56,105 bases of DNA, taken from contig JBJXHH010000076.1 in assembly GCA_046160675.1 (NCBI GenBank), positions 1 to 56,105 of the forward strand, given 5' to 3'. Source of the DNA: Chitinophagales bacterium. Lineage in GTDB: Bacteria; Bacteroidota; Bacteroidia; Chitinophagales; BACL12. A model generated the notes under the pieces. That model was not told the origin of the DNA, searched no databases, and saw only the letters and a program-made list of their open reading frames with translations. Position 1 is the stretch's first letter; each line of letters opens with the position of its first letter. A program made the position numbers and the translations under genes. Below are positions 2,044-40,571 of the stretch, piece by piece.

Positions 2044-3432
2044 ATGAATTACGACGTAATAGTAATAGGCAGCGGGCCCGGCGGATATGTTACAGCCATC
2101 AGGGCTTCGCAGTTAGGTATGAAGACTGCTATAGTTGAGAAAGCTGAACTCGGTGGTGTCTGCCTGAACTGGGGCTGTATCCCGACAAAAGCATTACTCA
2201 AAAGCGCACAGGTGTTTGAATACCTAAAACATGCAAATGACTATGGTTTGAATGCATCTAATATTGAAATTGATTTCAACGGGGTGATTAAACGCAGCAG
2301 GGATGTAGCCGGTGGTATGAGCAAAGGCGTTAGTTTTCTTATGAAGAAAAACAAGATTGAAGTGATAGAAGGAAATGCTATGTTGAAAAAAGGAAACAAT
2401 GTAGATGTTACAGCTGTTGATGGAAGTAAAAAAACAATTTCAGCAAAACATGTCATTATAGCTACAGGAGCAAGAAGCAAAGAACTTCCTTCTTTAAAAC
2501 AGGATGGAAAAAAAATTATTGGTTACAGGGAAGCGATGGTTCTTCCCTCACAGCCAAAAAGCATGGTGATAGTTGGCGCAGGAGCTATTGGTGTCGAGTT
2601 TGCCTACTTCTATAACTCTCTCGGCACAAAAGTTACAATAGTTGAATTTATGAGCCGCCTTGTTCCTGTAGAAGATGAAGATGTGAGTAAAGAACTTCTT
2701 CGCAGTTTCAAAAAAGCAGGTATCACGGTAATGACGGAAGCAAGTGTTGAAGCAGTTGATACCTCCGGCGAAGGCTGCAAAGTGAAGGTGAAATCTAAAA
2801 CCGGTGAAGAAATGCTGCAATGTGATATAGTGCTTAGCGCTGTTGGCGTTGCTGCAAATATTGAAAACATCGGCCTGGAAGAAGTTGGGATAAAAACTGA
2901 TAAAGGAAAAATCTCTGTTGATGCAAATTATAAAACAAATGTTCCCGGTTATTATGCTATTGGCGATGTAACCCCGGGACCAGCGCTGGCACATGTTGCA
3001 AGCGCAGAAGGCATCACTTGTGTTGAAGCAATTGCAGGATTGAAGCCCGAACCGATTGACTACAACAATATTCCGGGCTGCACATATTGTTCACCTGAAA
3101 TTGCCAGCGTTGGTTATACAGAAGCAGCAGCAAAAGCTGCGGGCTATGAATTGAAGATCGGAAAATTTCCTTTTAGTGCAAGCGGAAAAGCTAAAGCTGC
3201 AGGAGCATCAGAAGGTTTTATAAAAGTAATATTTGATGCCAAGTACGGCGAATTTCTCGGCGCACACATGATAGGCGCAAATGTAACAGAGATGATAGCT
3301 GAAGTGGTAGCTGCTAGAAAATTAGAAACCACCGGGCATGAAATCATCAAAACCATTCACCCCCACCCGACTATGAGTGAAGCATTGATGGAAGCAACTG
3401 CTGCAGCTTACGGAGAGGTGATACATTTGTGA
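2044..3432 (+). CDS. lpdA: Dihydrolipoyl dehydrogenase
   Basis: GSGPGG FAD-binding motif, GGVCLNWGCIPTK redox disulfide, GAGAIG, HPHPTMSE. Confidence 0.97.
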   Translation: MNYDVIVIGSGPGGYVTAIRASQLGMKTAIVEKAELGGVCLNWGCIPTKALLKSAQVFEYLKHANDYGLNASNIEIDFNGVIKRSRDVAGGMSKGVSFLMKKNKIEVIEGNAMLKKGNNVDVTAVDGSKKTISAKHVIIATGARSKELPSLKQDGKKIIGYREAMVLPSQPKSMVIVGAGAIGVEFAYFYNSLGTKVTIVEFMSRLVPVEDEDVSKELLRSFKKAGITVMTEASVEAVDTSGEGCKVKVKSKTGEEMLQCDIVLSAVGVAANIENIGLEEVGIKTDKGKISVDANYKTNVPGYYAIGDVTPGPALAHVASAEGITCVEAIAGLKPEPIDYNNIPGCTYCSPEIASVGYTEAAAKAAGYELKIGKFPFSASGKAKAAGASEGFIKVIFDAKYGEFLGAHMIGANVTEMIAEVVAARKLETTGHEIIKTIHPHPTMSEALMEATAAAYGEVIHL

Positions 3433-3528: not shown

Positions 3529-4575
3529 ATGACGGATCATTTGATAATCTACTCAAGTCAGGAAATTCTTTCCCGCACAAAAATTCGTAAGCAGGAAACC
3601 AAACTTGGCGAAAAGATTACATCATTGAAAGAGTCTGAAAACTGGCATGAAGAACTGAAGAATGTTTCTTCACAGTTTGTTGTTCTCGGGATGCCTGAAG
3701 ATATTGGTGTGCGGGCCAACTACGGGCGAGGCGGGGCATACGCCGCCTGGAAACCATCACTTGATTTTCTGATCAACATGCAAAGCAATTCTTTTCTTTC
3801 AGGCGAGGAAATTTGTGTACTCGGGCATATTGATTTTTCTGACTTGATGGAAAAAGCCGATCTTCTTGATTATAAAAAAGATATTGGTGTATATGCTGCT
3901 AGGGATATTGTAACAGAAGTTGATGCAAGGGTGGAACATGTTATAACTAAAATTACAGCGGCAGGAAAAACCCCTGTGATAGTTGGTGGTGGGCATAACA
4001 ATGTTTATCCTATCATAAAAGGGAATTGTGCGGGTAGAAAAATTTCTTCAATGAATGTTATTAATTGCGATCCGCATTCTGACCTGCGCCCCCTCAATGG
4101 CAGGCATAGTGGAAACGGTTTTCATTATGCTTTCAGCGAAAAATTTTTAAAGAAGTATGCAGTTTTCGGGTTACATGAAAGTTATAACATTTCATCTGCA
4201 TTAGACCTTTTCGCAAAAGAAAAAAACCATTTATACTTTGAAACATATGATGATATTTTCGTCAGGGAAAGTATCAACTTTTTTGATGCGCTAAAAAATT
4301 GTATTGACTTTGTTTCATCTCATCTCACAGGAATTGAAATTGATCTTGACTCTATTCAAAACGTTCCTGTAAGTGCCCGTACTCCCAGCGGGATGCTGCC
4401 TGTAGATGTAAGAAAATATACCTGGTATTGCGCTGAGCAACTTAATGTTGCTTACCTGCATATTGCAGAAGGGGCGCCGGTTCTGGCGCACAAACAAATG
4501 GATAACAAAACCGGAAAACTCATCGCCTACCTCATTACAGACTTTATAAAAGCCTGCAATGCCCAAGGGTCATGA
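3529..4575 (+). CDS. hutG: Arginase/ureohydrolase family protein, probably formimidoylglutamase
   Basis: PEDIGVRANYGRGG, GGGHNN, DPHSDLR, HSGNGF and EIDLDSI metal-ligand motifs. Confidence 0.75.
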   Translation: MTDHLIIYSSQEILSRTKIRKQETKLGEKITSLKESENWHEELKNVSSQFVVLGMPEDIGVRANYGRGGAYAAWKPSLDFLINMQSNSFLSGEEICVLGHIDFSDLMEKADLLDYKKDIGVYAARDIVTEVDARVEHVITKITAAGKTPVIVGGGHNNVYPIIKGNCAGRKISSMNVINCDPHSDLRPLNGRHSGNGFHYAFSEKFLKKYAVFGLHESYNISSALDLFAKEKNHLYFETYDDIFVRESINFFDALKNCIDFVSSHLTGIEIDLDSIQNVPVSARTPSGMLPVDVRKYTWYCAEQLNVAYLHIAEGAPVLAHKQMDNKTGKLIAYLITDFIKACNAQGS

Positions 4576-4576
4576 G

Positions 4577-5965
4577 TTATTTCTGTATGCTGAATTTGAG
4601 GGTTTCTGTTTTTTCAAATGTACCTGAACTAAGAAAATAAACTCCCGACGGGAATTCCGAAACATCAATAGTAACATTGGAAGTTCCAGCGCTCATCAAT
4701 TCATGATAAATATTTCTTCCTGATAAGTCCATAATACTTATATCTCTTTCAACATGCAATATTTCTGAAAATTGAAGCGCAATAAAATCTTGAGCAGGAT
4801 TGGGAAATAACTGAAATGAACCTGTATTTTCATAAGTGACTGCAGTTGGTTCAGATGCGCATGCTTTCACACTAATAACATAATTGTTTTCAGGATGGTA
4901 ATGGTTTCTCAGAATAATATCTGCAGTGCCCTCTCCTGCAACATCATTTGTATAAAAATAATAATGAAGCGTAACACTTTCTCCCGCCGCAATGAAAAGG
5001 TTTGCTGAATCAACCGAAGGAGGATAACAAATATCTGTACAAATTGAAGTTTCCCATGCATCCGGTAAAGTTTCATTGAGTTTCAAAATATCAATATATG
5101 TATCAATATCATCCTCATTTGTTACAGTTATTTCACCTGTTATAGTTTCCCCGGCAATTCCTTCAAAGCAATCTTCACTATCAGCCATCGCTACAAAATA
5201 CCCATCAGCATCTCCACCACCACCACCTGGTTCCTCACCTAATAAGTTAGCGATCTCTTCCTTAATGTCATCAGGATAGCGGTCAAACCATACTTCGGCG
5301 TCATATACAATCCCGTCAGGGGTCACTAACCAGGAACAATTCGGGTTGGTTCCAAATTTTTCCCACCACTCATTACAAGGACCGTCAATCAATACAGTTA
5401 CATCAATATCAACGTCTGAAAGCATATCCTGCACTATTTCCTTTCTAGCTCCATAGGTACCCGGTTGCCTGTATAAGATCCCATCTTCATAGTTATCTGC
5501 GCCTGTATTTACTTCACCAAAGTAAGGGCTAATATCAGTTTTTGGGTGAGCCTCCACTGTATAAATCAGGAAGATATTGATTTCATCGCCAAATAGAACC
5601 TGCAACTCATTTATATCCGGAATTTTTTCACGAAACACAGGACATGTATAGCTACAACTGATAAGAAGTGCGGGTTTTCCGTCTTCAAGGAATTCTGATG
5701 CTGTGTAGGCTGTATTGTCAAGTGTATAAAGTCTGAAGTCAGGGATAAGACTTCCTTCCACCATTCCTTCCAATTCACTATCAATATCAGGGTACGTTGG
5801 AATTACACAAATTAAATCGTCATCGCCAGGTAAACTTTCCTGCCCGATAAAAGGACCGAGTTCAACGGCTTGTGCTGTAGCTGAAATCTGTGGAAAAATA
5901 CCCCAACTTAACATGGAAATGGTGCAGGCATACACAATGCTTTTGGAGAAATTAAGATTCATCAT
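4577..5965 (-). CDS. T9SS type-A cargo protein with deiodinase-like thioredoxin-fold domain (paralog 1)
   Basis: Signal peptide; KPALLISCSYTCPVF and IYTVEAHP; Cys-containing middle domain (SICTDICY); CTD LFPNPA...DLSGR...GVYFL. Confidence 0.8.
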   Translation of the reverse strand: MMNLNFSKSIVYACTISMLSWGIFPQISATAQAVELGPFIGQESLPGDDDLICVIPTYPDIDSELEGMVEGSLIPDFRLYTLDNTAYTASEFLEDGKPALLISCSYTCPVFREKIPDINELQVLFGDEINIFLIYTVEAHPKTDISPYFGEVNTGADNYEDGILYRQPGTYGARKEIVQDMLSDVDIDVTVLIDGPCNEWWEKFGTNPNCSWLVTPDGIVYDAEVWFDRYPDDIKEEIANLLGEEPGGGGGDADGYFVAMADSEDCFEGIAGETITGEITVTNEDDIDTYIDILKLNETLPDAWETSICTDICYPPSVDSANLFIAAGESVTLHYYFYTNDVAGEGTADIILRNHYHPENNYVISVKACASEPTAVTYENTGSFQLFPNPAQDFIALQFSEILHVERDISIMDLSGRNIYHELMSAGTSNVTIDVSEFPSGVYFLSSGTFEKTETLKFSIQK

Positions 5966-6135
5966 TCTATTTTATAAAAGTTCAACAATCAAATCCCTTA
6001 TTTGCAGGGTATTTCTGAGTGTGAATGAAGGAGGAGTGTAAATTTTACTTGTTGGATAGTGTGAGTATAACAAAAATCAAACCTGAAAATGAAGTTTGAT
6101 AATATAGAAGTAGCTTTCTAATTGGCAAGTAGTAT

Positions 6136-7512
6136 TTACAGAATTATAAACTGATCTGATAAAACGAAATCGCTGATATTCACTTTTATTATATACATCC
6201 CTTTTGCAAAGTTTTCTAGATTAATTGAAGTGCTAAATTGCCCTGATATCTTACTAAAGGCTTCTTTATAGACTGTGTTTCCTGTAGCATCCAAAATTGT
6301 TAAATACATATCTGATTTTCGAGTAGAATATGTTTGTAATTGAATATAATCGGTTGCCGGATTTGGGTAAATAAATAATGTTGGTTTCTCATCTGGTGGC
6401 GCCTCGGAAACATTTGTAGAGGCCTTAAATGTATATGTAAATGTATTAGCTGGTATGTAATGGTTTTTTAACATTATGGTTGCAGAGCCTGATGCATTAT
6501 TACCCGAAGTATAAAAATATATATGCATGACTTTTGTATCGCCTTTATTCACATACATAGTAGCCTCTGAAACATTGGACGAATAACATATGTCCGTACA
6601 AATAGAAGTTGTCCAATTTTTAGGAACATCTTCACTTAAACGATACAAATCAAGGTATGCATCTACAGTATCATTATTTGTAATTGACGCCTCTATAATA
6701 ATTGTTTCGCCACTTATTCCATATACATAATTCGTATCTGCATCTGCTGATACTATTCCCCTGGGAACCGGCTCTCCGTCAGAAGTAATACCAAGCAGGC
6801 CTTCAATGGCTGAATAAATATTTTCAGGAAATCTGTCAAGCCATTGCTCTGCATCATAAATTACACCGTTACGATCTACCAGCCATGCACAGTTCGGGTT
6901 TGTTCCAAAGTTTAGCCACCAAGTGTTACAAGGTCCATCAATTAGAATTGGCACTGAAATATCTTCTGCATTAATCATATTCTCTACGAGAGATTTTCGT
7001 TCTCCATAAGTAGTTGGTTGCCTGTACAATATTTCAGCATCTAAATTCTCAGAACCTGTATTTACATAACCATAATAGGGGCTGATGTCAATTACCGGAT
7101 GTGCCTCAACTGTATAAACCAGGAAAATATTTAGAGCATTCCCGTAAAGGTCTTTCAGATTATTAATGTCAGGGATTTTATTCCTAAAAACCGGGCAGGT
7201 ATAATTACAACTAATAAATAATGCCGGCTTTCCATCGGATAAAATTTCAGAAGCCCTGTATGCCTCACCATTAGTATCATACAACTGGAAATCTGGAATT
7301 AAATCTCCTTCAGTATACCCTTCAAGATCTACATCTACCTCTGGGTAAATGGGTATATTACAAATTAACTCATTGTCAGGTGGTAAACTTTCCTCTCCAA
7401 TAAATGGCCCTAATATAACCGTTTGAGCATAAGAGGAGTTTTTTGGAATTAAGCAACAGCAAAATACAAATCCTAAATAATGAATAATTTGCGGGGAAGT
7501 AATTTTCGTCAC
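6136..7512 (-). CDS. T9SS type-A cargo protein with deiodinase-like thioredoxin-fold domain (paralog 2)
   Basis: KPALFISCNYTCPVF, VYTVEAHP, IYPNPA CTD. The ORF is open to 7587; GTG at 7512 is preferred because it gives a normal-length signal peptide starting xTKI like paralog 3. Confidence 0.78.
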   Translation of the reverse strand: MTKITSPQIIHYLGFVFCCCLIPKNSSYAQTVILGPFIGEESLPPDNELICNIPIYPEVDVDLEGYTEGDLIPDFQLYDTNGEAYRASEILSDGKPALFISCNYTCPVFRNKIPDINNLKDLYGNALNIFLVYTVEAHPVIDISPYYGYVNTGSENLDAEILYRQPTTYGERKSLVENMINAEDISVPILIDGPCNTWWLNFGTNPNCAWLVDRNGVIYDAEQWLDRFPENIYSAIEGLLGITSDGEPVPRGIVSADADTNYVYGISGETIIIEASITNNDTVDAYLDLYRLSEDVPKNWTTSICTDICYSSNVSEATMYVNKGDTKVMHIYFYTSGNNASGSATIMLKNHYIPANTFTYTFKASTNVSEAPPDEKPTLFIYPNPATDYIQLQTYSTRKSDMYLTILDATGNTVYKEAFSKISGQFSTSINLENFAKGMYIIKVNISDFVLSDQFIIL

Positions 7513-7685
7513 TTGTTCTGTAAAAAAAGCAAAAATTGAATTTTTTTTAATGCAGTGGTTTCCTTGTTTCAATAGTTTCGAAAACATGATGCCGGAATAT
7601 TACAAAATATTCTATTCGAATGTAATGTAAAACTCTGGAATATATTCAATATTTTCTAATCGAAGTTAGTTAGGCTCAGATTCAA

Positions 7686-9074
7686 TTAATGAACAATAAT
7701 TTCGCTGTAAATCTCGGTATCGGCTCTTTGCATTTTTACAATATATAAACCACTTGCAAAATTCCCTACATTTACACTTACATTGAATTGGCCGCTAACA
7801 AGAGCTTGAGATTTATTAAACATAACATTTCCAGTTATATCAAAAATAGTTATCAGGAGGTCAGAAGTTGTTGCGGAATAAGTTTGTAATTGTACTTCAT
7901 CTGTTGCAGGGTTCGGGAATAAAAATAATTCAGGTCTTTCTATAGAAATGTCAGCAGTTCCTGTGCTTCCCGTGCAAGCTTTGAAAATGTATGTAAAATT
8001 ATTAGATGGTATGTAATGGTTTTTTATAAGGATTGTTGCTGTTCCGTATGCATCAGCCCCAATTGTATAAAAATAAACATGCATAGGTAAGGTTTCTTCA
8101 GAGTCAACATACATGGTAGCCTCCATTACCTCTGGAGGGAAACAAATATCAGTGCAAATAGAAGTTAGCCAGCCCTCGGGAAGGTTCTCTTCGAGCCTTA
8201 ATACATCCAGGTAAGCATCAGCAGTATCTTCGTTCACAACAGAACCACTAACAACTATCGTCTCACCGCTTTCTCCCGTAATACATTCACTTTCAGCAGA
8301 AGCTGTAACAATCCCGTCAGGTACAGGCTCCCCATCTGTTGTAATACCGAATAAGCCTTCTACTGAGGCAAAAATATCATCGGGAAATCTGTCAAGCCAT
8401 GGTTCGGCATCATAAATCACTCCATCGCTTTGTACAAGGTATGCGCAATTTGGGTTCGTACCGAAATTTAGCCACCATTCATTGCAGGGTCCGTCGATTA
8501 AAACAGGAACTGATATTGTTAGGTCTTCAATCATATCGTTTACGATATCTTTTCTTTGACCATAAGTATCGGGTTGTTCGTACAAAATATCATCCGTAAA
8601 GTTAGGATCTCCTGTAAGTTCCACCCCAAAATAGGGGCTGATATCATATAAAGGATGTGCTTCTACTGTATAAATAATATAAATATGCAGTTCATCACCA
8701 TATAAAGCCTGTAAAAGATTTACAACAGGAAGCTGATCTCTGAACACCCAACAGGTGTAACTGCCACCTACGAATAATGCGGGTTTGCCATCACTTAATA
8801 ATTCAGATGCGGTTACCTCCACTCCATCAACTGTATATAATGTAAAGTCAGGAATAAGATCACCTTCAGTCAGCCCCTCCAGCTCATCGGTTATTAAAGG
8901 GTAAAAAGGAATATCACAAATTTCAGCTGAGTTTGAAGGTAAACTTTCAAGCCCAATGGATGGTCCAAGTTCTACAGGTTGTGCCCAAGATATTTGGTGG
9001 GCAAATACAAGGTGTACAAAAAGATATGTAAAAAGTAAATTGGAGTTACTTTTACAACGAAAGATCTTTGTCAT
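7686..9074 (-). CDS. T9SS type-A cargo protein with deiodinase-like thioredoxin-fold domain (paralog 3)
   Basis: KPALFVGGSYTCWVF, IYTVEAHP, LFPNPA CTD. The ORF is open to 9176; ATG at 9074 is preferred on signal-peptide length. Confidence 0.78.
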   Translation of the reverse strand: MTKIFRCKSNSNLLFTYLFVHLVFAHQISWAQPVELGPSIGLESLPSNSAEICDIPFYPLITDELEGLTEGDLIPDFTLYTVDGVEVTASELLSDGKPALFVGGSYTCWVFRDQLPVVNLLQALYGDELHIYIIYTVEAHPLYDISPYFGVELTGDPNFTDDILYEQPDTYGQRKDIVNDMIEDLTISVPVLIDGPCNEWWLNFGTNPNCAYLVQSDGVIYDAEPWLDRFPDDIFASVEGLFGITTDGEPVPDGIVTASAESECITGESGETIVVSGSVVNEDTADAYLDVLRLEENLPEGWLTSICTDICFPPEVMEATMYVDSEETLPMHVYFYTIGADAYGTATILIKNHYIPSNNFTYIFKACTGSTGTADISIERPELFLFPNPATDEVQLQTYSATTSDLLITIFDITGNVMFNKSQALVSGQFNVSVNVGNFASGLYIVKMQRADTEIYSEIIVH

Positions 9075-9218: not shown

Positions 9219-9252
9219 AAAACAAAAGCCTCTAGCAAATTACTAAAGGCTT
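9219..9252 (-). terminator. Terminator after ftsZ (end of the dcw operon)
   Basis: Minus strand reads AAGCCTTTAG-loop-CTAGAGGCTT followed by TTGTTTTT. Confidence 0.7.
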
Positions 9253-9274: not shown

Positions 9275-11011
9275 CTAATCTACATTGTCATGCAGGAAGG
9301 TATTATTCTTTTTGATCTCCAGCCCTTCCTCATCAGTTTGCTCAATTGTGAATTTTGAAAATTGTACTTCATTTGAATGGGGGGTGTCTTTTAATTCAAC
9401 TTCTCTTCGCATATATGCTGGCACCTTTTCCAATTCTTCCAGATTATTTAATTTCATGCTCATAGATTTCAAACGCTTCACCCGGTCATCTTCTGCTTTA
9501 TTTATGTGATCCAGCTTGTCCTGATTTCTCATAAAATTATTTTCAGAAGTTTTGGCCACAGGTATCAAATCTTCTTTTGCTTTTTCTTGAATTGGTTCTG
9601 GTTTAATATCTCCTGAATCCCTTTTTATTGTAAACTCAACTTCCTGTTTTGGCTCTTCAAAGGATTCCTGTTGGGCAACAACTTCTGTTAGCGGAGTATC
9701 ATTCACAACATCCTCAATCTTAATGCTTGACGTTTCAAGCACAGACTGCTCATCCTCATGAATAACCTTCTGTTCCGGGGTTTCAGTGGGCTGTTCAATT
9801 TCTTTTTTCTCTAACCCCAATAATTCATTACTGAAATTAAAAGTGAATTGTTTTGGATCTTCTTTTACAGTTTTTTTCAAGTCTTCCTTTTGTTCAGAAA
9901 AAAGTTCTGTTCTTTTTTCCTGCTTCCCTTCCATCACATCAACATTTACAGTTGCATTATTTACAGTTGCCTGTTTTTTTTGTTTTGAATATTCATTTGC
10001 ATCAACATGACTTACGACAACTTTTTTGGATTTCTCTCTCACCTTTCGTTGTTCCTCAGTTTCAAAACCCGTTGCAATTACTGTTACCAGTAAATTATTG
10101 CCAATGCTATCATCTGTACAGTTGCCCCAAATTATATCACAATCATTGCCTGAAGCCATCTGGACAAATTCTGTTATTTCAGAAATTTCATCCATCAGAA
10201 CTGGTTCGGTTCCAGAGGTGATATTTAATAAAATACTTTTAGCTCCACGAATATCATTATCATTCAACAGCGGTGATTCCAATGCAGCTTTTACTGCATT
10301 TAATGACCTGTCTTGTCCACTAGCCTTGCCGCTTCCCATGATTGCAAGCCCGCTGTCTCGCAAAACTGTTTTTACATCTTCAAAGTCTACATTAATATAA
10401 CCGGGTACAGTAATGATTTCAGCAATTCCTTTTGCGGCTGTTGTAAGAATATCATCTGCATGTGCAAAAGCCTCATTCCAGGGAAGATTCCCGTAAATTT
10501 CTCTCAACTTATCATTTGAAATAATAAGAATTGCATCAACATTTTTTTTCAGTTCTTCTAAACCGTCATATGCTTGTGATTTTCTACGCTTACCTTCAAA
10601 GTTAAAGGGTAAGGTAACTATGCCGATAGTAAGAATGCCCATCTCTCTTGCTGTCTTGGCAATAACCGGCGCACCGCCAGTTCCTGTTCCGCCTCCCATA
10701 CCCGCAGTTATAAAAACCATCTCTGTATTTTTCTCCAAAATACCTTTCAGCTCTTGTAAACTTTCCATGGTGGCTTCACGGCCCATGTGTGGATGGGAGC
10801 CTGCCCCCCTTCCCTTTGTGAGGCTTGGGCCAAGTTGAACTTTCACAGGGATGGAACTCATTTCAAGTACCTGAGAGTCCGTGTTACAGATAATAAAATT
10901 TACATCCTTTATTCCTTGTTCAAACATGTGATTTACGGCATTGCAGCCACCGCCACCAACGCCGATGACTTTTATGATTGAACTTTGTTCTTTGGGCAAA
11001 TCAAAATACAT
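9275..11011 (-). CDS. ftsZ: Cell division protein FtsZ (long acidic linker)
   Basis: GVGGGGCNAV, GMGGGTGTG tubulin signature, INVDFEDV; Bacteroidota-type C-terminus PAYMRR...NTFLHDNVD. Confidence 0.98.
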   Translation of the reverse strand: MYFDLPKEQSSIIKVIGVGGGGCNAVNHMFEQGIKDVNFIICNTDSQVLEMSSIPVKVQLGPSLTKGRGAGSHPHMGREATMESLQELKGILEKNTEMVFITAGMGGGTGTGGAPVIAKTAREMGILTIGIVTLPFNFEGKRRKSQAYDGLEELKKNVDAILIISNDKLREIYGNLPWNEAFAHADDILTTAAKGIAEIITVPGYINVDFEDVKTVLRDSGLAIMGSGKASGQDRSLNAVKAALESPLLNDNDIRGAKSILLNITSGTEPVLMDEISEITEFVQMASGNDCDIIWGNCTDDSIGNNLLVTVIATGFETEEQRKVREKSKKVVVSHVDANEYSKQKKQATVNNATVNVDVMEGKQEKRTELFSEQKEDLKKTVKEDPKQFTFNFSNELLGLEKKEIEQPTETPEQKVIHEDEQSVLETSSIKIEDVVNDTPLTEVVAQQESFEEPKQEVEFTIKRDSGDIKPEPIQEKAKEDLIPVAKTSENNFMRNQDKLDHINKAEDDRVKRLKSMSMKLNNLEELEKVPAYMRREVELKDTPHSNEVQFSKFTIEQTDEEGLEIKKNNTFLHDNVD

Positions 11012-25161: not shown

Positions 25162-26469
25162 TCAAAAAAAACTTATATCATCATGCAGATCTTTAATGGA
25201 GCCGAAGCCGATAACATCCTTTAAAACAGGTTCGTCGCTGAGTTCAGAGGCAGGAATGATCTTATCTGTGCCGAATTTATCTTTAATAGAATACACGGTT
25301 TTGCGCAGTGTATCTTCTTTCATTTTATTGCCAAACAAAGAGTATTGCACATATTTATCCTCTACAAAATCAGATACCCAGACACCGATACTGGTTATCC
25401 GTTTATTGATCACATCCTCAAAATTGTTTTCCTCAGAATGTTTTTCCATGCGCTTACGCAGTATTTGCATAATTTCTATTCCGCTTTGGATTGGTTGTGA
25501 TGTGATGATATGGTCATCATACCTTTTTATTTCTTTCGTGTACCAGCCGGTTTCTTCATAAGAACAACTGATGCCGAATTTTTTTGCAAATACACTGTTA
25601 CGCACCATTCTTCTCTCCAGAGTCATGCATAGGGAAAGAAATAATTCATTTAATACTTCAATATTTTTCCTTTGTTCTTTTGATACTTGCCGCATGTTTT
25701 GCATGTTCTTATAACCATGTACCTGCATATCCACCTCCCGAAAATTCAGGCGATAATTCCAGTGCAGGCCTACAATACTTTTGCAAACTCTTTTCAACCT
25801 TTCGGCAGAAGCATAACGCAATTCAAGTGGTGTATGAATGCCACCTCTGATAAGTCTTTTACTCATACCGTCTGCTATGCCCGGAAGGTCAGTGAGTTTG
25901 AGTTTGCTGAGATGTTCATCAATGTTGTCCGGGGTGATCAGACATATTTCATCTGTGCCCCCAATATCAGAACCGAGTTTTGCAAGAAAAGCATTGGGTG
26001 CCACACCGATGGAACATTTTAGATAGTCGCCCACTTCATTTTTTATGTCCTGCTGAATTTGTTTTGCTACTGCAACGGTGTCTTTATAAATAAGATCATA
26101 CCCGTTCAGGTTTACTATGGCCTCATCAATGCTTTTAGGAATTACATTATCTGAATATTTTTTCAACACCTCCATAATCTTTACATGAAACTCCCGGTAG
26201 CGGGTGGGGTGTGTTTCCAGCGGCACAAGTTCCGGGCAGATTTTCATTGCTTCATCTAAGCGCAGGCCCAGGCCAATTCCTTTTTTCTTTGCTTCAATGG
26301 AAGATGAGATCACACAACCGAACTGACCTGTATAAACACAAACACCAACGGGCCTGTGGCGCAACCAGTAATTTACCTGCTGCTCACAGGTAGCAAAAAA
26401 GCTGTTCATGTCTACAAACAGAACTGAGGGCTTCAGGTTTTGGTGTTGATGGTTGAAGTTTGGAAGCAT
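25162..26469 (-). CDS. dinB: Y-family translesion DNA polymerase (Pol IV-like)
   Basis: FVDMNSFFA, SIEAKKKGI, SIDEA catalytic acids, SIGVAPNAFLAKL, QYSLF clamp-like motif. Confidence 0.88.
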   Translation of the reverse strand: MLPNFNHQHQNLKPSVLFVDMNSFFATCEQQVNYWLRHRPVGVCVYTGQFGCVISSSIEAKKKGIGLGLRLDEAMKICPELVPLETHPTRYREFHVKIMEVLKKYSDNVIPKSIDEAIVNLNGYDLIYKDTVAVAKQIQQDIKNEVGDYLKCSIGVAPNAFLAKLGSDIGGTDEICLITPDNIDEHLSKLKLTDLPGIADGMSKRLIRGGIHTPLELRYASAERLKRVCKSIVGLHWNYRLNFREVDMQVHGYKNMQNMRQVSKEQRKNIEVLNELFLSLCMTLERRMVRNSVFAKKFGISCSYEETGWYTKEIKRYDDHIITSQPIQSGIEIMQILRKRMEKHSEENNFEDVINKRITSIGVWVSDFVEDKYVQYSLFGNKMKEDTLRKTVYSIKDKFGTDKIIPASELSDEPVLKDVIGFGSIKDLHDDISFF

Positions 26470-26483
26470 GGTATTTTGTTTCC

Positions 26484-26510
26484 CGTAGATTACGCTGATG
26501 GCGCAGATGA
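26484..26510. repeat. Three imperfect 9-bp tandem repeats between the DUF5131 gene and dinB
   Basis: CGTAGATTA CGCTGATGG CGCAGATGA. Confidence 0.45.
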
Positions 26511-26518
26511 AAAATTAA

Positions 26519-27244
26519 TTAAGCTACTTGGCGATGAGGTCTCATCACAGGCATTTCATCATAAGTTCTTCCGTTCAAAATTCTCCCGGCTTTCTTTTTA
26601 TTTGCCCCTCCCCATTGTTTGAAAAAGAATTTCACTTTCTGTTTCCTACATTGATTTTTTATATCAATTACCCACTCTTTAGCCATTGGTCTTGCTTTCC
26701 TTCCGCTTTCCCCGCCAACAATTACCCAGTTTATGTTCTCTAGATGTAAGTTATTGAGAGGGCCAATCAGTGGTTCGCAGGAAAGAAATTTGGTTTTCGC
26801 ATTTGTACCCCGAAGAAAATCTATTCTGTCAATTACTTTTTCATCTTCTACTGAAACTCCCATCCAGATATTTTCACTCCAATTTAACTTATCGTGCAAT
26901 TCATAAAGACGCTCAGCTCTCTTTGTCAAAATCTGGTAAACATGTTCTGTATCATTCATCACTCCAAAAACTTTTTTGATAAACTCCAGTGGCACATCTT
27001 TATGAAACAAGTCACTCATGGAGTTTACAAAAACAACTTTCTGTTTATTCCAGGAATAAGGGATATGAAGGGCATCTTCATGCAATCGTAATTTAAAAGC
27101 ATCTTTATATTTTTCAATTCCCATCGCCTGCAAGCGTTTCGCCATTACTTCAGCATAACAGTATTTGCATCCTGCCGAGACTTTATTGCAACCCGTTGTC
27201 GGGTTCCAGGTCATTTCAGTCCATTCTATTGATGATTGAGACAT
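26519..27244 (-). CDS. DUF5131 / phage Gp37-Gp68 family three-Cys protein
   Basis: IEWTEMTWNPTTGC-x6-CKYCYA, FVNSMSDLFH, QILTKR, SCEPL, WVIVGGESG, FFKQWGG. Confidence 0.92.
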   Translation of the reverse strand: MSQSSIEWTEMTWNPTTGCNKVSAGCKYCYAEVMAKRLQAMGIEKYKDAFKLRLHEDALHIPYSWNKQKVVFVNSMSDLFHKDVPLEFIKKVFGVMNDTEHVYQILTKRAERLYELHDKLNWSENIWMGVSVEDEKVIDRIDFLRGTNAKTKFLSCEPLIGPLNNLHLENINWVIVGGESGRKARPMAKEWVIDIKNQCRKQKVKFFFKQWGGANKKKAGRILNGRTYDEMPVMRPHRQVA

Positions 27245-27246
27245 AG

Positions 27247-28371
27247 TTATTTAAATTTTACAGTTGCTGTGTATGTTATTTTCTGTTTCCGGTTACCTTT
27301 TATGTCTATTAGAAATATTTCATCCTTACTTAACAATTGTTTAATTGCTTCTTTATAATTTTCTTTGATATAATTTGTTCCGTAATTATGTTCTAAATAT
27401 ATGTCCTCAATTTTCTTGTTATTAAATCTAGCTTTATCATCCCGTAAAAGTGTAATTAGATTAACTATTGAGTATTTATTTAGTTCTGGGAATAATGTAG
27501 GTGAAATTGGCAAATTTGCGCCGAACATAGGAACACCATCCCCCTGAAAATCACTATACTTCTGCATTATTTCTTTTGCTCTCGTCAATGCAATATTAAC
27601 CTTCGAGACAAAATAAAGATAATGGCTTGATTGATCTCTATCAGGAAAATTAATTTTAAATCTTAAAGTCTTATAATTTTTTTCCTTAAATATACTTTCG
27701 AAAATTTCTAATATGAATAATTCCCTTTTATCTGGGTTTCTTTCAAGTTCATAAAATTCTCTAATTTTATCTAAATCATCTTCGAAAATTTCCTGCATGT
27801 TTCTTTCGACAGACTCATTTATTACTGCCATTCGTATTCGGTTGATATTGAACAGTACGAATAGATCTGAACCCCAACTTCTTATTGCTTCAAGTAACAT
27901 CTTTTTGGTATAACCATACCCTAATGGATCAATAAAAGTCAATGATGGAACACCTCTTCTTAAAATATTTACCAAAAGAGAATGGGCTGCCTCTTGTTGA
28001 AAGATAACTGGTTTGTGAGTCAATTCATTGTAAAAGGTTAACGATGTTACATTAGCAATCAATTTTTCAATAATTTTGGGCTCATCATCATTAAAAAATG
28101 TTTTGACACTTTTATCATAATCAATAAAATCATTCCCTTTACTCTTATAAATGCTATTCAATATTTTTAGTGGTGTTGATATATTTCCATCCTCATATTT
28201 GCCGGTTCCAGCGAACAAATCAATATATGCTAATTCATTAATGCTTTTATAAGATTGTCCCTTCAACATTATCGCAGCCCATGCTTTAAAATATTCAACT
28301 AAAATTTCTGATTTTATTTCAGATGTGTCTCTTTGTTTTTTGAAAAAGTTTTCGGGAGATATTCCAGCCAT
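27247..28371 (-). CDS. tcmP: Three-Cys-motif partner protein (TcmP family, methyltransferase-like)
   Basis: K-x-x-IL-x-x-Y start, YIDLFAGTG SAM-binding loop, FIDPLG; 2 nt upstream of the DUF5131 gene. Confidence 0.8.
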   Translation of the reverse strand: MAGISPENFFKKQRDTSEIKSEILVEYFKAWAAIMLKGQSYKSINELAYIDLFAGTGKYEDGNISTPLKILNSIYKSKGNDFIDYDKSVKTFFNDDEPKIIEKLIANVTSLTFYNELTHKPVIFQQEAAHSLLVNILRRGVPSLTFIDPLGYGYTKKMLLEAIRSWGSDLFVLFNINRIRMAVINESVERNMQEIFEDDLDKIREFYELERNPDKRELFILEIFESIFKEKNYKTLRFKINFPDRDQSSHYLYFVSKVNIALTRAKEIMQKYSDFQGDGVPMFGANLPISPTLFPELNKYSIVNLITLLRDDKARFNNKKIEDIYLEHNYGTNYIKENYKEAIKQLLSKDEIFLIDIKGNRKQKITYTATVKFK

Positions 28372-28384
28372 AAAATATTTTTCT

Positions 28385-28392
28385 CAAATTTA
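28385..28392 (-). promoter_or_regulatory. Possible internal -7 promoter element (TAAATTTG) for tcmP
   Basis: TAnnTTTG on the minus strand 13 nt upstream of the tcmP ATG. Confidence 0.35.
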
Positions 28393-28402
28393 TAAAGCCA
28401 TC

Positions 28403-29206
28403 TTAATTCCTTTCAATACTATCCAGCCTGCTTTTTAAAATACTCACTTGCATCGTTAAATCGCCTACTAACTTATCCAGGTCATTTTTTTTCACAGGCA
28501 TATAATTGGAAAGTTTGCTTTTTACATACCAGAGTTCTTTTATTGCTTCGGCATCTACAGCTATTTCGGGGTAGGCTTCATTATCGCTCAGTAGGTAAAT
28601 TTTATTCTCTGATTGAAGTTTATTGATTACTCTTTTCACCAACACATTATCATTAGTAACCACAACATGTATGTATCCCTCCCGGATATCTTTTGTAAAA
28701 TCATCACAAAACCGTGCAATCACATAGTCGCCATGCTGCAGAGTATCCTGCATACTATCGCCCTCAATTTGAAAACAACGGAAAGTCCCATTTCGGTAAT
28801 CGGTGCCTGGCAATTTAAATGCGGGCAGTTCTTTATAAAATTCAGGTTCAAGAAATCTTGTCGGGTATCCTGCGGCTGCTTTGGTATCTACCATCACAAT
28901 ATTTTCCTCGCCAGCTTCATCAACAGTGATCACAAACGGACGATAAATAATAGTGCCACTGCCTTGTTCAACATCTTTTGTAGAAACCTTCTTCAACTGC
29001 TTTGACAGGTCTTTATGGAGGAGTTCGTCTAGCGAAACGTCAAATATTTTGACAATTTCAAGCAAGGTTTTATGTCCCGGGTTAGCAAGGTTGGCTTCAA
29101 TGTTTGCTACTGCGGTTCGCCCTACGCTCAGCATGTCAGCAAGTTCCTGCTGGCTCATCTTTCTTTTACTGCGTAAGTGTTTGAGGTTCTTTGCTAAATG
29201 ATTCAT
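28403..29206 (-). CDS. XRE-HTH + S24 peptidase repressor (LexA/CI-like)
   Basis: NLKHLR...SQQELADMLSVGRTAVANIE HTH; AAAGY Ala-Gly cleavage site; EGDSM catalytic Ser; LVKRV catalytic Lys. Confidence 0.9.
   Translation of the reverse strand: MNHLAKNLKHLRSKRKMSQQELADMLSVGRTAVANIEANLANPGHKTLLEIVKIFDVSLDELLHKDLSKQLKKVSTKDVEQGSGTIIYRPFVITVDEAGEENIVMVDTKAAAGYPTRFLEPEFYKELPAFKLPGTDYRNGTFRCFQIEGDSMQDTLQHGDYVIARFCDDFTKDIREGYIHVVVTNDNVLVKRVINKLQSENKIYLLSDNEAYPEIAVDAEAIKELWYVKSKLSNYMPVKKNDLDKLVGDLTMQVSILKSRLDSIERN
29039..29053. promoter_or_regulatory. Candidate repressor operator within the repressor gene (GTCA-N7-TGAC)
   Basis: GTCAAATATTTTGAC. Confidence 0.5.
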
Positions 29207-29239
29207 AAGAAAATAATTTTATCAACAAGTATTGAAATT

Positions 29240-29277
29240 GTCAAATATATTGACTTTTTTTGTCAAAAATAATGACA
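29240..29277. promoter_or_regulatory. Two tandem candidate operators (GTCA-N7-TGAC) in the divergent promoter
   Basis: GTCAAATATATTGAC (29240-29254) and TGTCAAAAATAATGACA (29261-29277). Confidence 0.7.
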
Positions 29278-29280
29278 TTT

Positions 29281-30354
29281 ATGGAAATTCCAAAAATTGA
29301 AGAAGAAAAATTTCTAAAAGGCCGGGGAGCGCAGATAAATCCTTTTAACCCCTTTCATGATAATAATTATGTGCAGGAGCATATTGAAGGGTTAGATGAG
29401 GAGATGATTACGCCGAGGGAGACTTTGTTTTTTACAGATTTTCCTAAAAATGCTTTGAACAAGGTGGAAAGCCCCGATTCGGGAATGATGTATTCCATCA
29501 ATCCCTACCAGGGCTGCGAACATGGTTGTGTCTATTGTTATGCAAGAAACTCTCACAACTATTGGGGTTTTAGTGCTGGGCTGGATTTTGAAACAAGGAT
29601 TATCGTAAAACCCAATGCGCCCCAGTTATTAGAAAAGGTTTTTTTGAATAAAAATTGGAACCCCTACCCGATTCATATTTCAGGCAACACAGATTGTTAT
29701 CAACCTATCGAAAGAAAAATGAAAATCACACGGACTATTCTTGAAGTGTGTTTGAAATATAAAAATCCGGCGGGTATGCTTACAAAAAATCAGCTCATAG
29801 TCCGTGATATTGATATACTTGGTGAACTTGCAAAAGAAAGATTGATTCACACATTATTGTCAGTTACAGCCCTTGATGAAAACATCAGGCTGAAGTTGGA
29901 GCCGAGAACTGCTACCTATAAAGCAAGATTAAAAACAATGGAAAAACTTGCACAAAATGGAATTCCTGTTGGTGTGATGATAGGCCCGATTATTCCCGGG
30001 CTCACAGATCATTTTCTACCCGACATTATGAAAGCTGCTGCCGATCATGGTGCACATACTGCTGTATTTACGATGCTGCGGTTGAACGGAGCTATTGCTC
30101 AAATTTTTACAGATTGGATCTATAAGACTTTTCCTGATCATGCTGACAGAGTTTTGAGCAATGTGAAAGCAGTTCACAACGGAAAACTGAACGACAGTCG
30201 TTGGGGAAAAAGAAAACGAGGTGATGGTGAGCTTGCTTTTGCCATTCAACAAATGTTCTATTTAATGAAGGAAAAATACATGGGGCATTACCCTCCATTC
30301 GCTTTTAATTTAAAGGCTTTCAGAAGACCGGGGCAAATGCAATTAGAATTATGA
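29281..30354 (+). CDS. PA0069-family radical SAM protein (spore photoproduct lyase-like clade)
   Basis: KGRGAQINP, SINPYQGCEHGCVYCYAR (CX3CX2C), GLDFETRI, NTDCYQP, LEPRT; ATG at 29281 preferred over TTG at 29260. Confidence 0.9.
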   Translation: MEIPKIEEEKFLKGRGAQINPFNPFHDNNYVQEHIEGLDEEMITPRETLFFTDFPKNALNKVESPDSGMMYSINPYQGCEHGCVYCYARNSHNYWGFSAGLDFETRIIVKPNAPQLLEKVFLNKNWNPYPIHISGNTDCYQPIERKMKITRTILEVCLKYKNPAGMLTKNQLIVRDIDILGELAKERLIHTLLSVTALDENIRLKLEPRTATYKARLKTMEKLAQNGIPVGVMIGPIIPGLTDHFLPDIMKAAADHGAHTAVFTMLRLNGAIAQIFTDWIYKTFPDHADRVLSNVKAVHNGKLNDSRWGKRKRGDGELAFAIQQMFYLMKEKYMGHYPPFAFNLKAFRRPGQMQLEL

Positions 30355-32010: not shown

Positions 32011-35000
32011 CTATCTCAATAAGGTTAGGTTTCCGTATGCAATTATCTTTTCACCACTTAAACAAACCGCTTCAATTGAATAAACATACACATCCTGATT
32101 GCAAAGTTTTCCCTTAGAAGTTCCATCCCAGCTTGCATATGGGTCATTTGTAGAAAATATCAGCCCGCCAAGTCTGTCAAAAATCTTATATCCTGAAACA
32201 CTTTCTAATCCTTCATATTTTATACTAAATACATCATTAAACCCATCGTTATTCGGTGTGAATAAATTGGGTATTGCGAAGAGACTCACCTCACATCCTT
32301 TTACATTAATAAAAGCGAAATCAGTGTCGGAGCAGCCAAATTGATTAGTAACGATAACACTGTAGAGTGTTGTAACATTTGGTGAAACATTAACACTTGA
32401 ACATGTATTACAGTCTATATTATAATCAGGCATCCATGCATAACTCATGGTATTTGAAGAAAAATCAGTTACAGTTGTATTTAACACAAGTGGGTCCTGG
32501 CCAATAATGTATAAAAGGGAGTCTTCAATAATATTTACAACAGGAGGGTCGTTTACAGATATATAGGCTGTATATGTTTCGATTAGGTTTCCACATGTTG
32601 CTTCCACAGTATAACTAATATCATTTGTGGGAATGCTGTATGGGTCTAACGAATAACTATCTGATAAAAATGTGGAGGGCGACCAGACATAATTAATGAA
32701 TCCTTCATTAACAGAATCTGTAAAATCAACAAACAAAGAAACAGTATCACCTATACAAATATCTGCATCAGAACCTGCAGCATTGATTAGGTTATTTATG
32801 ACAGATATTGTTGTTGATGTGTCAGAAGTACAATATCCATTATCCGCTATTACGGTGTAAGTAGTTGTGGTAATTGGCGATGCGATCGGGTCATTAATGT
32901 TTGTTGCTGAAAGGCTATCAGTTGGTGACCAGGTATAAGAAACAGCTCCATCAGCGTAAGCACTTAAAGAAACCGATAAACCGGGACAAATTGTAGTATC
33001 AGGCGAAATCATAATATCGGGATACTCAAGGGCAGTTACCAGAATTTCCATTTCATCTGTACATCCAAAAATCGTTTCAACCGTTAAGCTTGTATTATAA
33101 ACCCCAGGGTTCGTATAAACATGATTATAATTAGAGGATGAATCCGAAGAAATACTTAAATCCCCTAAATCCCAAAACCAACTTATCAGCTCATCGGGCC
33201 CCGAAGAACTATCTGTAAATGTTATCTCCTGACCAGTACAGATTGTAAGTTCTGAAACAAAATAATTTGCTGTTGGTAAGCCTCCAACTTCAATGGTATC
33301 ATTTGCGAGAAAAATATTAGAGCACCCTGCACTATCCGTAACATATGCTGAAATATAAAATGTTCCTGTATCTGAATAAATATAAGGGATTGTATATGTT
33401 GAATAAACATCTGTATAAAGTATGTCAGCATTATAAGTATTCCCATCTCCAAAAAACAATGATACTGTATCTATTGAAGCTCCATTTAAATAAAAGGAAA
33501 CGGCATCACCAATACACAAGCTATCATCGCTGATAGAAATATTCCCATAAGGGCCGGGAACGAGAGTATAACCATCTATTATGACCTCTCCGGAACACCC
33601 GTTTGTGTTTGTAATGATAACTGAAACCGTATATTCTCCAGCACTGATATATGCATGAATTGGTTCTGCTTCTGATGATGTGTAGCCATCCCCAAAATCC
33701 CATTCAAAACTTTCCAGGCTGTCAGCAGATTCAACAAAAAATTGAACTAAAGCATAGTTACAACTTGAAATCAAAATATCTGAATTGATTTCTCCCAAAA
33801 CTGTATCGGAAACAATTGATTCAAAGACTTTACTATCTGTACATCCATTAATGTCAGTAACAGTTAGAGTGACCGGGTAAGAGCCAATATCTGAATAGGA
33901 GTGAGATGGGAAACTATCCGTAGAAAAGCTGCCATCGCCAAATTCCCATGAGTAATCAATATCATAACCTGTTACTGTTTCATAAAAAAACACTTCTTCA
34001 TTAAGGCAGGGTATTGTATCTGAAATATAAAAATCTGCGAATGGTTGAGAAGCAATAATTTCAACTGTATCGTATGCAATACAACCCAACTCGTTAATTA
34101 CTGTCATAGTAACATTATAATAATTCTGAGTTGAATAGGTATGCGTCAAATCATCCACATCCGAAGCAGAATAAAATGTATCAATAGTACCATCATCCCA
34201 ATTGATTGTCCAAGATGATATATCAGCTCCTGATGAAACAGATAGATCAGAAAATTCTGCATCAAAAGGTAAACATCCCCCATAATCTGGAGTAAACAGT
34301 GAAGCGGTTATTGAACTTAAATATACGGTATCGCTTGTAAAAGCTGTACAACCTCTTGAATCTGTAATTGTCAGTTCCACAATAAATTGACCCGGAGAAA
34401 AATAAGTGTGGGTTGGATTATCTAAAGTTGAATAATACCCATCCCCAAAATCCCATTGATATGTTAATCCAGCGTCAGAAATACCGTCAGTTGAAAAATT
34501 CGAAAAATAAATTGCACCTGGCACATAACATCTCACTTCAGGTACGGCAATAAAATCAGCAACCGGTGTCTTTATAGTAACATATATTCCCAATCCCTGG
34601 CAAGGATCGGGTGTAATACAATAATAAGTCACCGTTACATGATATGTACCCGCAGCTGAATATGTGTGCGTAGGATTTAGTGATATGCTATCTGTGGTTC
34701 CGTCTCCAAAGTCCCATAACCACCCACAACTGGAATCTGCAAGTACTGGGTCTATAAATAATTCGACGGTGTAAGGATCTGTACAATTATATGTTACACT
34801 TAAGTTAGAATCATCAACATCAAGAATATGAATATCAGAAGAAATTGTATCTGTACATCCATTATTCCAAGTTATATAATCTACTGTGTGATCCCCTGGT
34901 GGAAGTGTAATAACAGTTGACGAACTAACTGGTGATGTTGACGCATAATCTAATCCACCATCAATTATTGCAGTAATAGAATCTAAAGGTAAATAATCCA

Positions 35001-38739: not shown

Positions 38740-38759
38740 ATCATTAAAACACACAAAAA

Positions 38760-40560: not shown

Positions 40561-40571
40561 AACTAATTGAC

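Follow-up and report, generated by a model that had tools for sequence, protein, structure and literature searches.

The DNA considered here is a stretch of 56,105 nucleotides from a Chitinophagales bacterium of the Bacteroidota (assembly GCA_046160675.1, contig JBJXHH010000076.1, positions 1 to 56,105 of the forward strand), referred to as the window. The subject of this analysis is a group of three paralogous genes, designated W1, W2 and W3, that follow one another head to tail in it, all on the minus strand and a short way downstream of ftsZ. Each is a complete open reading frame (ORF): W1, identified by its ORF and its Pfam and NCBIfam scores, occupies 4577..5965 and encodes 462 residues; W2 occupies 6136..7587; W3 occupies 7686..9074 and encodes 462 residues from the ATG at 9074. 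A preliminary description of this DNA had placed three paralogous genes at 4577..9074, and three intact ORFs are indeed found at those coordinates. (On start sites: W2 would be 483 residues long if read from the ATG at 7587, and 458 residues long from the GTG at 7512; the database form of the protein has 458 residues, consistent with the GTG start. The W3 frame is open up to a TTG at 9176; its database form, however, has 462 residues.) The three proteins share one layout: predicted signal peptide, N-terminal extension, thioredoxin-fold domain, immunoglobulin (Ig)-like domain and, at the C-end, a type A sorting domain for the secretion system of type IX (T9SS). All of the gene segments specified below are, like the genes themselves, on the minus strand; residue numbers for the family are those of W2, and conservation is counted over 83 family sequences or over 263 instances of the catalytic domain.

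The two ends of these proteins mark them as probable export substrates. The N-termini consist of a hydrophobic stretch followed by A-Q, and the predicted signal peptides accordingly comprise residues 1-31 of W1 (5873..5965; hydrophobic core and A-Q site, with cleavage predicted at A31/Q32), residues 1-54 of W2 (7426..7587; A54/Q55, if translation starts at the ATG at 7587) and residues 1-31 of W3 (8982..9074; A31/Q32). The residues ahead of a conserved LxPxIG are A in 54 and then Q in 67 of the 83 family sequences. The A-Q site fits the "Q-rule" described for signal peptidase I substrates of the Bacteroidetes (PMC5837995, PMC10653852), and cleavage would be expected to occur there. The C-terminal 75-80 residues form the sorting domain (C-terminal domain, CTD), at 4580..4810 in W1 (46.5 bits with PF18962, Por_Secre_tail; 38.7 bits with TIGR04183), 6139..6372 in W2 (51.1 and 40.3 bits) and 7689..7922 in W3 (50.2 and 37.9 bits). 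All three are above the curated cut-offs of both models (27 bits for PF18962, 23 bits for TIGR04183), with matches that stop 1-4 residues short of the protein end; the earlier assignment of a type A CTD to every copy is thereby borne out, and its assignment of a signal peptide agrees with the hydrophobic stretch and the A-Q site. A second T9SS cargo of the window, at 32011-36681 on the minus strand, is a protein of 1556 residues with about ten PKD repeats and a sorting domain of type B (52.9 bits with CHU_C; 51.1 bits with TIGR04131, whose cut-off is 35). T9SS core genes are absent from the 56,105-nucleotide window. In Porphyromonas gingivalis, the CTD is removed and the cargo is then released or anchored to anionic lipopolysaccharide (LPS) (PMC11285876).

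The family to which the catalytic part belongs emerges most clearly from profile comparisons. Together, the N-terminal extension and the deiodinase-like domain span residues 32-245 of W1 (5231..5872), 55-268 of W2 (6784..7425) and 32-245 of W3 (8340..8981). The best NCBIfam match of the catalytic domain is NF038285 (deiodinase_rel, "deiodinase family protein"), at 54.8, 63.7 and 61.4 bits for W1, W2 and W3, respectively (E 1e-14 to 2e-17); it covers profile positions 168-320, leaving the first 167 of 347 unmatched. In an alignment of the domain alone, NF038285 matches 28 of 28 rows, and ResA-type NCBIfam models match 3 of 28; there are weak NCBIfam matches to DsbE, ResA and MauD as well. T4_deiodinase (PF00837) is found at E <= 0.01 in 49 of 62 full-length family members, AhpC-TSA in 26 and Redoxin in 23; for relatives of other lengths, 40 in number, T4_deiodinase gives 35 matches at E <= 0.001, of which 16-17 attain its 27-bit cut-off; PF00837 had been precomputed for about 47 of the 120 relatives listed. 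By profile, the closest solved relatives are the animal iodothyronine deiodinases, Dio1-3 (PF00837; 4tr3 and 4tr4 for Dio3, 9h48 for Dio2). Searched against the PDB, the full-length family profile reaches Dio3 (4tr3) at E 4.9e-7 and Dio2 (9h48) at 1e-5, with the best other thioredoxin-fold chain at 0.073. When only the domain is used, the values become 9.1e-13 for Dio3 (4tr3) and 5.6e-12 for Dio2 (9h48), followed at a distance by ResA (4nmu, 3.3e-5), 2ls5 ("Uncharacterized protein", 4.9e-5), GPx5 (9.8e-5), YkuV (2e-4) and BCP (6.7e-4). The nearest named clusters of the Atlas are all PF00837, with feature scores of 0.92-0.94 and TM (template-modeling) scores of 0.70-0.79. W1, W2 and W3 are very probably secreted Cys-type enzymes of the deiodinase family: the profile evidence and the alignment with Dio3 that is described next agree with the proposal, made from the window alone, of a deiodinase-like domain bearing Cys at the selenocysteine position.

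That alignment runs without a gap over 50 residues, from a Pro at -10 relative to the catalytic position through Y-x-x-E-A-H-P, and places P-x6-S-x-T-C and Y-x-x-E-A-H-P on the same columns as in Dio3. The S/N-Y-T-C-P/W-V-F of the three proteins falls on S-C-T-C-P-P-F in Dio3 and on S-A-T-C-P-P-F in Dio2; both chains (4tr3 and 9h48) are selenocysteine-to-cysteine constructs (PMC11592359). The codon at the selenocysteine position was said to be TGT or TGC, and it reads TGT for Cys108 of W1 (5642..5644), TGC for Cys131 of W2 (7195..7197) and TGT for Cys108 of W3 (8751..8753). TGA is found at this site in none of 84 genes (81 genes in 80 loci and the three of the window), all of which specify Cys. 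The E-A-H-P motif, aligned with that of Dio3 and Dio2, is at residues 138-141 of W1 (5543..5554), 161-164 of W2 (7096..7107) and 138-141 of W3 (8652..8663). Four deiodinase-like motifs had been quoted in order in the preliminary description; all are present in W1, and HMMER pairs them with the motifs of Dio3 and Dio2 in the same order. Features common to the three proteins and Dio are S-x-T-(selenocysteine/Cys)-P-x-F, Y-x-x-E-A-H-P, a Gln, an Arg after the insertion, and D-x-x-x-N. The insertion that follows E-A-H-P is in the same place as in Dio, in a loop that is about 8 residues longer.

Conservation is concentrated on the same residues. Cys131 is present in all 83 family sequences and in 259 of the 260 domain instances in which the column is filled; Glu161, Ala162, His163 and Pro164 are likewise each 83 of 83 (His163 also in 261 of 263 domain instances); Thr130 is found in 82 of 83, Tyr158 in 81 of 83 and Ser128 in 62 of 83 (W2 has Asn there), and Arg135, Arg197 and Asp217 are near-invariant over the 263 domain instances. 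The interval between Cys131 and His163, 32 residues, equals that between Cys130 and His162 of Dio2. (The Dio2 numbering was verified by means of the K180A/K181A construct, visible as "AAH" in the aligned chain.) The proton relay of Dio2 comprises Ser127, Thr129, Tyr157, Glu160, His162 and His182, with Pro163 providing a kink and Cys205 serving as the distal Cys, while Glu225 and Arg226 contact the amino-carboxylate group of the substrate (PMC11592359). The equivalents of the relay Ser, Thr, Tyr, Glu and His162, and of Pro163, are retained in the family. Conserved aromatic positions of the domain are F100, Y129, Y158, Y171, Y188, Y194, W223 and W224. W3 has Trp instead of Pro right after the catalytic Cys (YTC-W-VF), a replacement found in 3 of the 83 sequences.

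Additional cysteines distinguish these proteins from Dio, and two of them from most of their own relatives as well. Cys220 of the DGPCN motif (W2, 6928..6930; W1, 5375-5377; W3, 8484-8486) and Cys76 (W2, 7360-7362; W1, 5807-5809; W3, 8916-8918) are present together in 215 of the 248 instances in which both columns are filled, absent together in 33, and never found singly. Because the two co-occur perfectly, a Cys76-Cys220 disulfide probably ties the N-terminal extension to the domain, a difference from Dio; such a staple would be in keeping with an extracytoplasmic location. Cys127, at -4 from the catalytic Cys (W2, 7207..7209; W1, 5654-5656), is Gly in W3 (8763-8765), and the position is Cys in only 16 of the 83 sequences. 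Cys233 of the NPNC motif (W2, 6889..6891; W1, 5336-5338; W3, 8445-8447), which aligns with Arg226 of Dio2, is confined to the three window copies among the 83 sequences, and is found in 8 of the 62 rows of the family alignment A2. The motifs quoted earlier are all present in W1, but the family as a whole does not share the Cys of NPNC, and W3 has no Cys at -4. Conversely, a Cys pair at W2 columns 259 and 271, present in 58 and 57 of the 83 relatives, is missing in all three window copies. It looks like a swap of cysteine pattern within one subclade, in which Cys259 and Cys271 may have been exchanged for Cys127 and/or Cys233; the latter two may be placed where a resolving Cys could act. (A Sco-like copper site made of the C-x-x-x-C and a His was considered and rejected: the first Cys is found in only 16 of 83 sequences, and the SCO1/SenC model is unmatched.)

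Between the catalytic and sorting domains lies a domain of about 125 residues, at 4826..5212 in W1, 6388..6768 in W2 and 7938..8324 in W3, each with a C-x-D-x-C motif: C309-x-D-x-C313 in W1 (5027-5041), C330-x-D-x-C334 in W2 (6586-6600) and C307-x-D-x-C311 in W3 (8142-8156). Both Cys, which may form a disulfide or belong to a metal site, are found in 83 of 83 family sequences and the Asp in 79; Asn304 and Trp325 are also invariant in the family. Pfam yields no match to this domain, and the best of a PDB profile search is only at E 1.5; in an Atlas structure search, the middle domain of W2 superimposes on unnamed and T9SS-cargo clusters with TM scores, by query, of 0.75-0.85, and on an NPCBM_assoc/CARDB cluster with 0.68. 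What had been called a "Cys-pair domain" does contain an invariant Cys pair, but on the strength of the structure search is better described as an Ig-like sandwich.

How old is this triplet? End-to-end protein alignment gives pairwise identities of 48, 49 and 55%. Synonymous sites are saturated (pS, the proportion that differ, is 0.70-0.80), pN is 0.30-0.36, and DNA repeats across the triplet, at a spacing of 1553-1559 bp, comprise only short stretches with identity of at most 81%. Divergence is uneven along the proteins, with 62-63% identity in the catalytic core, 42-56% in the Ig-like domain and 28-45% in the CTD. The triplet is an ancient tandem triplication kept by purifying selection. It is not the product of chance, of recent duplication or of an assembly artefact, nor is it a pseudogene array.

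Relatives are plentiful. A search of 5.8 billion clustered proteins with the full-length sequence (E <= 0.001) found 264, mostly of 440-470 residues, many with precomputed PF18962 and PF00837; in their sources some are called "deiodinase-like protein", others "redoxin domain-containing protein" or "T9SS type A sorting domain-containing protein", and those that are named all come from metagenome-assembled genomes (MAGs). With the catalytic domain as the sole query, the clusters retrieved (built at 50% identity) number 1005 at E <= 0.001, falling to 466 at E <= 1e-10 and to 136 at E <= 1e-30. Several architectures are seen: the domain alone with a signal or lipoprotein-like leader, the domain with a CTD, the domain with four PKD_6 repeats and a CTD, and a double domain. 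Species-representative genomes yielded 215 candidate stretches, and a relative is encoded in 189 of them. The best 80 of these 189 loci, all from MAGs, which are the basis of the counts of taxonomy and gene neighborhood, comprise 76 from Bacteroidota (Chitinophagales, Saprospirales, Flavobacteriales), 3 from Ignavibacteriota and 1 from Pseudomonadota. Tandem copies are rare among them: two copies are found at one locus and three copies at none. That one locus (L005; contig JACJXO010000001.1, 7944-10708, a Chitinophagales MAG) is also alone among the 80 in having the setting of the window, with murC-ftsQ-ftsA-ftsZ, tandem deiodinase-like genes, and the lipoamide dehydrogenase gene lpd on the opposite strand; its FtsA and Lpd are 75% and 79% identical to those of the window, which has an extra third copy and an arginase-family gene between array and lpd. 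By itself this likeness would make a related organism of Chitinophagales type the probable source of the window. The preliminary description knew of no characterized secreted family in three copies. The triple tandem is indeed unusual, but the family is common in the Bacteroidota, and part of it has been named automatically. A FastTree phylogeny of 92 rows groups the three copies with a database copy of W1 and three metagenome proteins, seven rows in all, inside a well-supported clade of 23 rows, mostly Chitinophagales. In a tree of architectures, length classes are clustered yet mixed, blurred by fragmentary metagenome ORFs; W2 is placed in a clade of 33 rows made up only of proteins of 400-500 residues.

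The immediate setting of the triplet is simple. Upstream, ftsZ (9275-11011) closes a murC-ftsQ-ftsA-ftsZ cluster, and the triplet comes next; downstream, it converges on the arginase-family gene (3529-4575), with lpd (2044-3432) beyond. A terminator-like hairpin at 9226..9252 on the minus strand (12 pairs and a T-rich tail, a match to consensus only) follows the ftsZ stop codon, upstream of W3. Because it lies directly after ftsZ, it suggests that W3 is not transcribed by read-through from the cell-division operon. A scan for sigma-70 promoters found 18 sites, with no excess over the mean of 20.0 for shuffled sequence. The promoters of the Bacteroidetes have the -7 motif TAnnTTTG. It is present in none of the upstream spacers of W1, W2 and W3, and the window as a whole, with 57 occurrences against a shuffle mean of 83, is not enriched for it.

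The rest of the window holds two other gene groups. Five genes at 25162-30354 look like a mobile or damage-response island of small size. They encode a Y-family polymerase with an IMS domain, a DUF5131 protein, a LexA-like helix-turn-helix and S24 peptidase protein, a "three-Cys-motif partner" protein resembling TcmP (112.6 bits; cut-off 53) and, from the opposite strand, a radical SAM protein. A cluster for polysaccharide synthesis and export at 37390-56104 specifies Wzz/GNVR, Wzy_C, several GT4 glycosyltransferases, a hexapeptide transferase and Glycos_transf_4, along with a sigma-54 activator (37390-38739) and a fusion of a receiver domain with a Poly_export/SLBB protein (39346-40560); its G+C content is 0.30-0.34, against 0.36-0.42 before 36 kb. 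It also includes, at 46499-49045 on the plus strand, an ORF of 848 residues in which only weak pieces are recognized, from a thymidylate-kinase P-loop and from an APH phosphotransferase. Scans of the window for Rfam families (at gathering thresholds), tRNA genes and PADLOC defense systems each returned nothing.

What might these proteins do? The explanation that we prefer, and to which we assign a probability of about 0.55 as a whole, is that they are exported, anciently duplicated Cys-type enzymes of the deiodinase branch, engaged in thiol chemistry. The precursor would be exported by the Sec pathway and cut at A/Q, with the Cys76-Cys220 disulfide forming in the periplasm; the T9SS would then carry the protein across the outer membrane by way of its type A CTD, and after removal of the CTD the protein would be released or anchored at the cell surface through anionic LPS. 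Cys131, in S/N-Y-T-C-P/W-V-F-R, would be the catalytic residue, with Tyr158, Glu161 and His163 of Y-T-V-E-A-H-P placed behind it, spaced as in the hydrogen-bond relay of Dio2 and Dio3. The Cys131 thiolate might attack an electrophilic atom, most probably a halogen, of a small aromatic substrate; reductive dehalogenation would leave a sulfenyl halide or a sulfenic acid on Cys131, which could be resolved by Cys127 and/or Cys233, or by an external thiol or sulfide. The copies differ in the loops around the catalytic centre, and their substrates therefore probably differ.

These elements do not all carry the same weight. Dehalogenation of small haloaromatics, specifically, is ranked first among functions because the spacing and the insertion of the deiodinases are kept, because aromatic positions are conserved, and because thiol-only dehalogenation has precedents; it is nevertheless a tentative assignment, with the odds somewhat against it. 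Unlikely, taken as a joint proposition, is its fullest elaboration: a graded set of surface-bound or released thiol dehalogenases, a selenium-free bacterial counterpart of the deiodinases, each copy tuned to a substrate different from those of the others and recycled by environmental thiols or sulfide through Cys127 and Cys233. Their substrates would be haloaromatics outside the cell, whether of natural or of human origin, such as bromophenols, iodotyrosine residues and halogenated pollutants.

A number of observations weigh against the explanation that we prefer, and some of them against dehalogenation in particular. With Pfam, the single proteins score 18.1 (W1), 13.0 (W2) and 14.2 bits (W3) for T4_deiodinase, below its 27-bit gathering cut-off; Redoxin scores 20.3 bits in W1 and 24.4 in W2 (with no match in W3), slightly above the T4_deiodinase scores of the same two proteins, and AhpC-TSA matches W2 only, at 20.7 bits, these also lying below their cut-offs (26.6 bits for Redoxin, 26 for AhpC-TSA). 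The scores with NF038285 are far under the 250-bit cut-off of that model, and W1, W2 and W3 are therefore relatives rather than members of that group. The profile comparison proposed in the preliminary description, T4_deiodinase against Redoxin and AhpC-TSA, thus ends approximately in a tie for single proteins; it is the family level that favors deiodinase, and there neither TlpA nor peroxiredoxin fits better, because NF038285, the Dio3 and Dio2 profile matches and the counts of members all point the other way. Within the catalytic domain, the insertion after E-A-H-P aligns with that of the deiodinases, but the second relay His is not in place: all three copies have Pro191 in the column of Dio2 His182, and over the 263 domain instances this column is Pro 234 times and His 9 times. 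The columns of Glu225 and Arg226 are Pro231 and Asn232 (82 and 80 of 83), and the column of the distal Cys is Val212 in the window copies (Cys in 9 of 263 instances). Since the residues that the Dio2 paper ties to thyronine binding are replaced, the substrate should not be a thyronine, and the catalytic centre is best read, residue by residue, as deiodinase-type with a substrate of another kind. In abstracting a halogen, Cys is considered far inferior to selenocysteine, and no thiol reductant is obvious for an enzyme that works outside the cell. The surroundings offer no help: when 907 ORFs from the 80 loci were clustered, the best cluster of neighbors was found in 7 of 80 loci, so that there is no operon partner, and no recurrent neighbor among the 80 loci points to halogen chemistry or to a redox partner. 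Finally, a known activity of any bacterial family member was not found in the literature searched.

The strongest rival, doubtful in our estimation, would make these proteins extracellular or surface thiol peroxidases, in which a peroxidatic Cys131 reduces H2O2 or organic hydroperoxides and is resolved by Cys127, Cys233 or an outside thiol. The deiodinase fold is itself peroxiredoxin-like, with a peroxiredoxin-like cascade of re-reduction (PMC11592359), and the sub-threshold Redoxin and AhpC-TSA matches of W1 and W2, which recur in 23 and 26 of the 62 family members, together with GPx5 and BCP in the domain-profile search, speak for a peroxidase. Yet the deiodinase chains are better by 7-8 orders of magnitude than any peroxiredoxin or GPx chain. 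The signature of the peroxiredoxins is PxxxTxxC, which the P-x6-S-x-T-C spacing, being of deiodinase type, does not fit; the deiodinase-type insertion after E-A-H-P is retained, and the problem of the extracellular reductant applies to a peroxidase equally. Quite unlikely is the suggestion that W1, W2 and W3 are thiol:disulfide oxidoreductases of the TlpA/ResA/DsbE kind, or thiol-transfer enzymes of some other kind, acting on surface or periplasmic proteins or on small disulfides: what is invariant at the active site is a single Cys, the Cys at -4 being too infrequent and missing from W3; CxxC is absent from all three proteins; and the ResA-type models, with their 3 of 28 domain rows, do not approach the 28 of 28 of the deiodinase model. 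This has to be set against the match to ResA (4nmu), several "thioredoxin family proteins" at E 1e-3 to 5e-3, the weak matches to DsbE, ResA and MauD, the C-x-x-x-C of W1 and W2, and the precedent of a T9SS cargo with a thioredoxin-like motif, HBP35 of P. gingivalis (PMC2907840). That the three are non-catalytic binding or adhesion modules of the surface, built on a dead enzyme fold and varied for antigenic or structural ends, is very improbable, for all that the thyronine-contact residues and one relay His are lost, an Ig-like domain with a CTD is a layout common to many adhesin-like T9SS cargoes, and the 80 loci yield no partner gene, since Cys131, Glu161, His163 and Pro164 are kept in every family sequence, Arg135, Arg197 and Asp217 nearly so in the domain instances, and the catalytic core is the best-conserved part of the paralogs.

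It is instructive to compare the secreted deiodinase-branch enzymes proposed here with better-known systems. From Dio they differ in having Cys for selenocysteine, in the replacements at His182, Glu225-Arg226 and the distal Cys already listed, and in their setting: where Dio has an N-terminal membrane anchor (PMC11592359, PMC9141512), they have a signal peptide that is predicted to be cleaved, together with an Ig-like domain and a T9SS CTD. Peroxiredoxins, TlpA, ResA and GPx share their fold class, with weak profile matches (E 3e-5 to 7e-4). HBP35, the T9SS cargo just mentioned, combines its thioredoxin-like motif with a conserved C-terminal domain and is described as a hemin-binding protein with thioredoxin activity (PMC2907840); the analogy is one of architecture only. 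The debrominase Bmp8 of marine Pseudoalteromonas, which removes halogen from aromatic compounds by oxidizing enzyme cysteines to a disulfide (PMC5577590), offers a chemical precedent. It is an intracellular biosynthetic enzyme, unlike the predicted extracellular products of W1, W2 and W3. Its fold reportedly differs from theirs, and a non-selenoprotein deiodinase of amphioxus is reportedly another thiol-only precedent.

Bacterial relatives of the deiodinases have been noticed for some time. A selenoproteome analysis of the Sargasso Sea published in 2005 included bacterial homologues of deiodinase with selenocysteine and with Cys, and suggested a redox function (PMC1088965); reviews of 2022 and 2026 list a "deiodinase-like protein" (PF00837, UxxC) among selenoprotein families (PMC9312934, PMC13188914), the latter remarking that the biological functions of nearly all of these families remain largely unknown (PMC13188914). 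The nearest named Atlas clusters of W1, W2 and W3 are of the same kind as these bacterial "deiodinase-like proteins", the selenocysteine- or Cys-containing homologues of PF00837. The three proteins themselves read C-P/W-V-F, with no Cys at +3, in contrast to the UxxC of the selenoprotein form. Within the literature searched, "bacterial deiodinase" is met in the 2005 Sargasso Sea analysis and in thyroid and microbiome reviews; type IX secretion and deiodinase were not found together there (most subscription journals lie outside it). As far as this search extends, then, the exported, T9SS-tagged architecture is undescribed, yet it is common in databases and has in part been named automatically.

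These genes accordingly belong to a known, widespread and uncharacterized bacterial family, and what is unusual about them is the triple tandem copy and the subclade-specific extra cysteines. The window presents a clean example of the exported branch of that family, in which a secretion tag, a probable disulfide staple and a Cys-based centre of deiodinase type are found together. If these proteins should turn out to be ordinary peroxidases, the outcome is a matter of routine annotation. Whichever function is theirs, the three diverged copies constitute a ready comparison set for experiments. Should extracellular removal of halogen prove to be correct, extracellular dehalogenases that need no cofactor would be established as a new class, one of interest for the breakdown of pollutants; it would also provide the bacterial deiodinase-like family with its first function, and would bear on the origin of the hormone-processing enzymes of animals from microbial redox enzymes.

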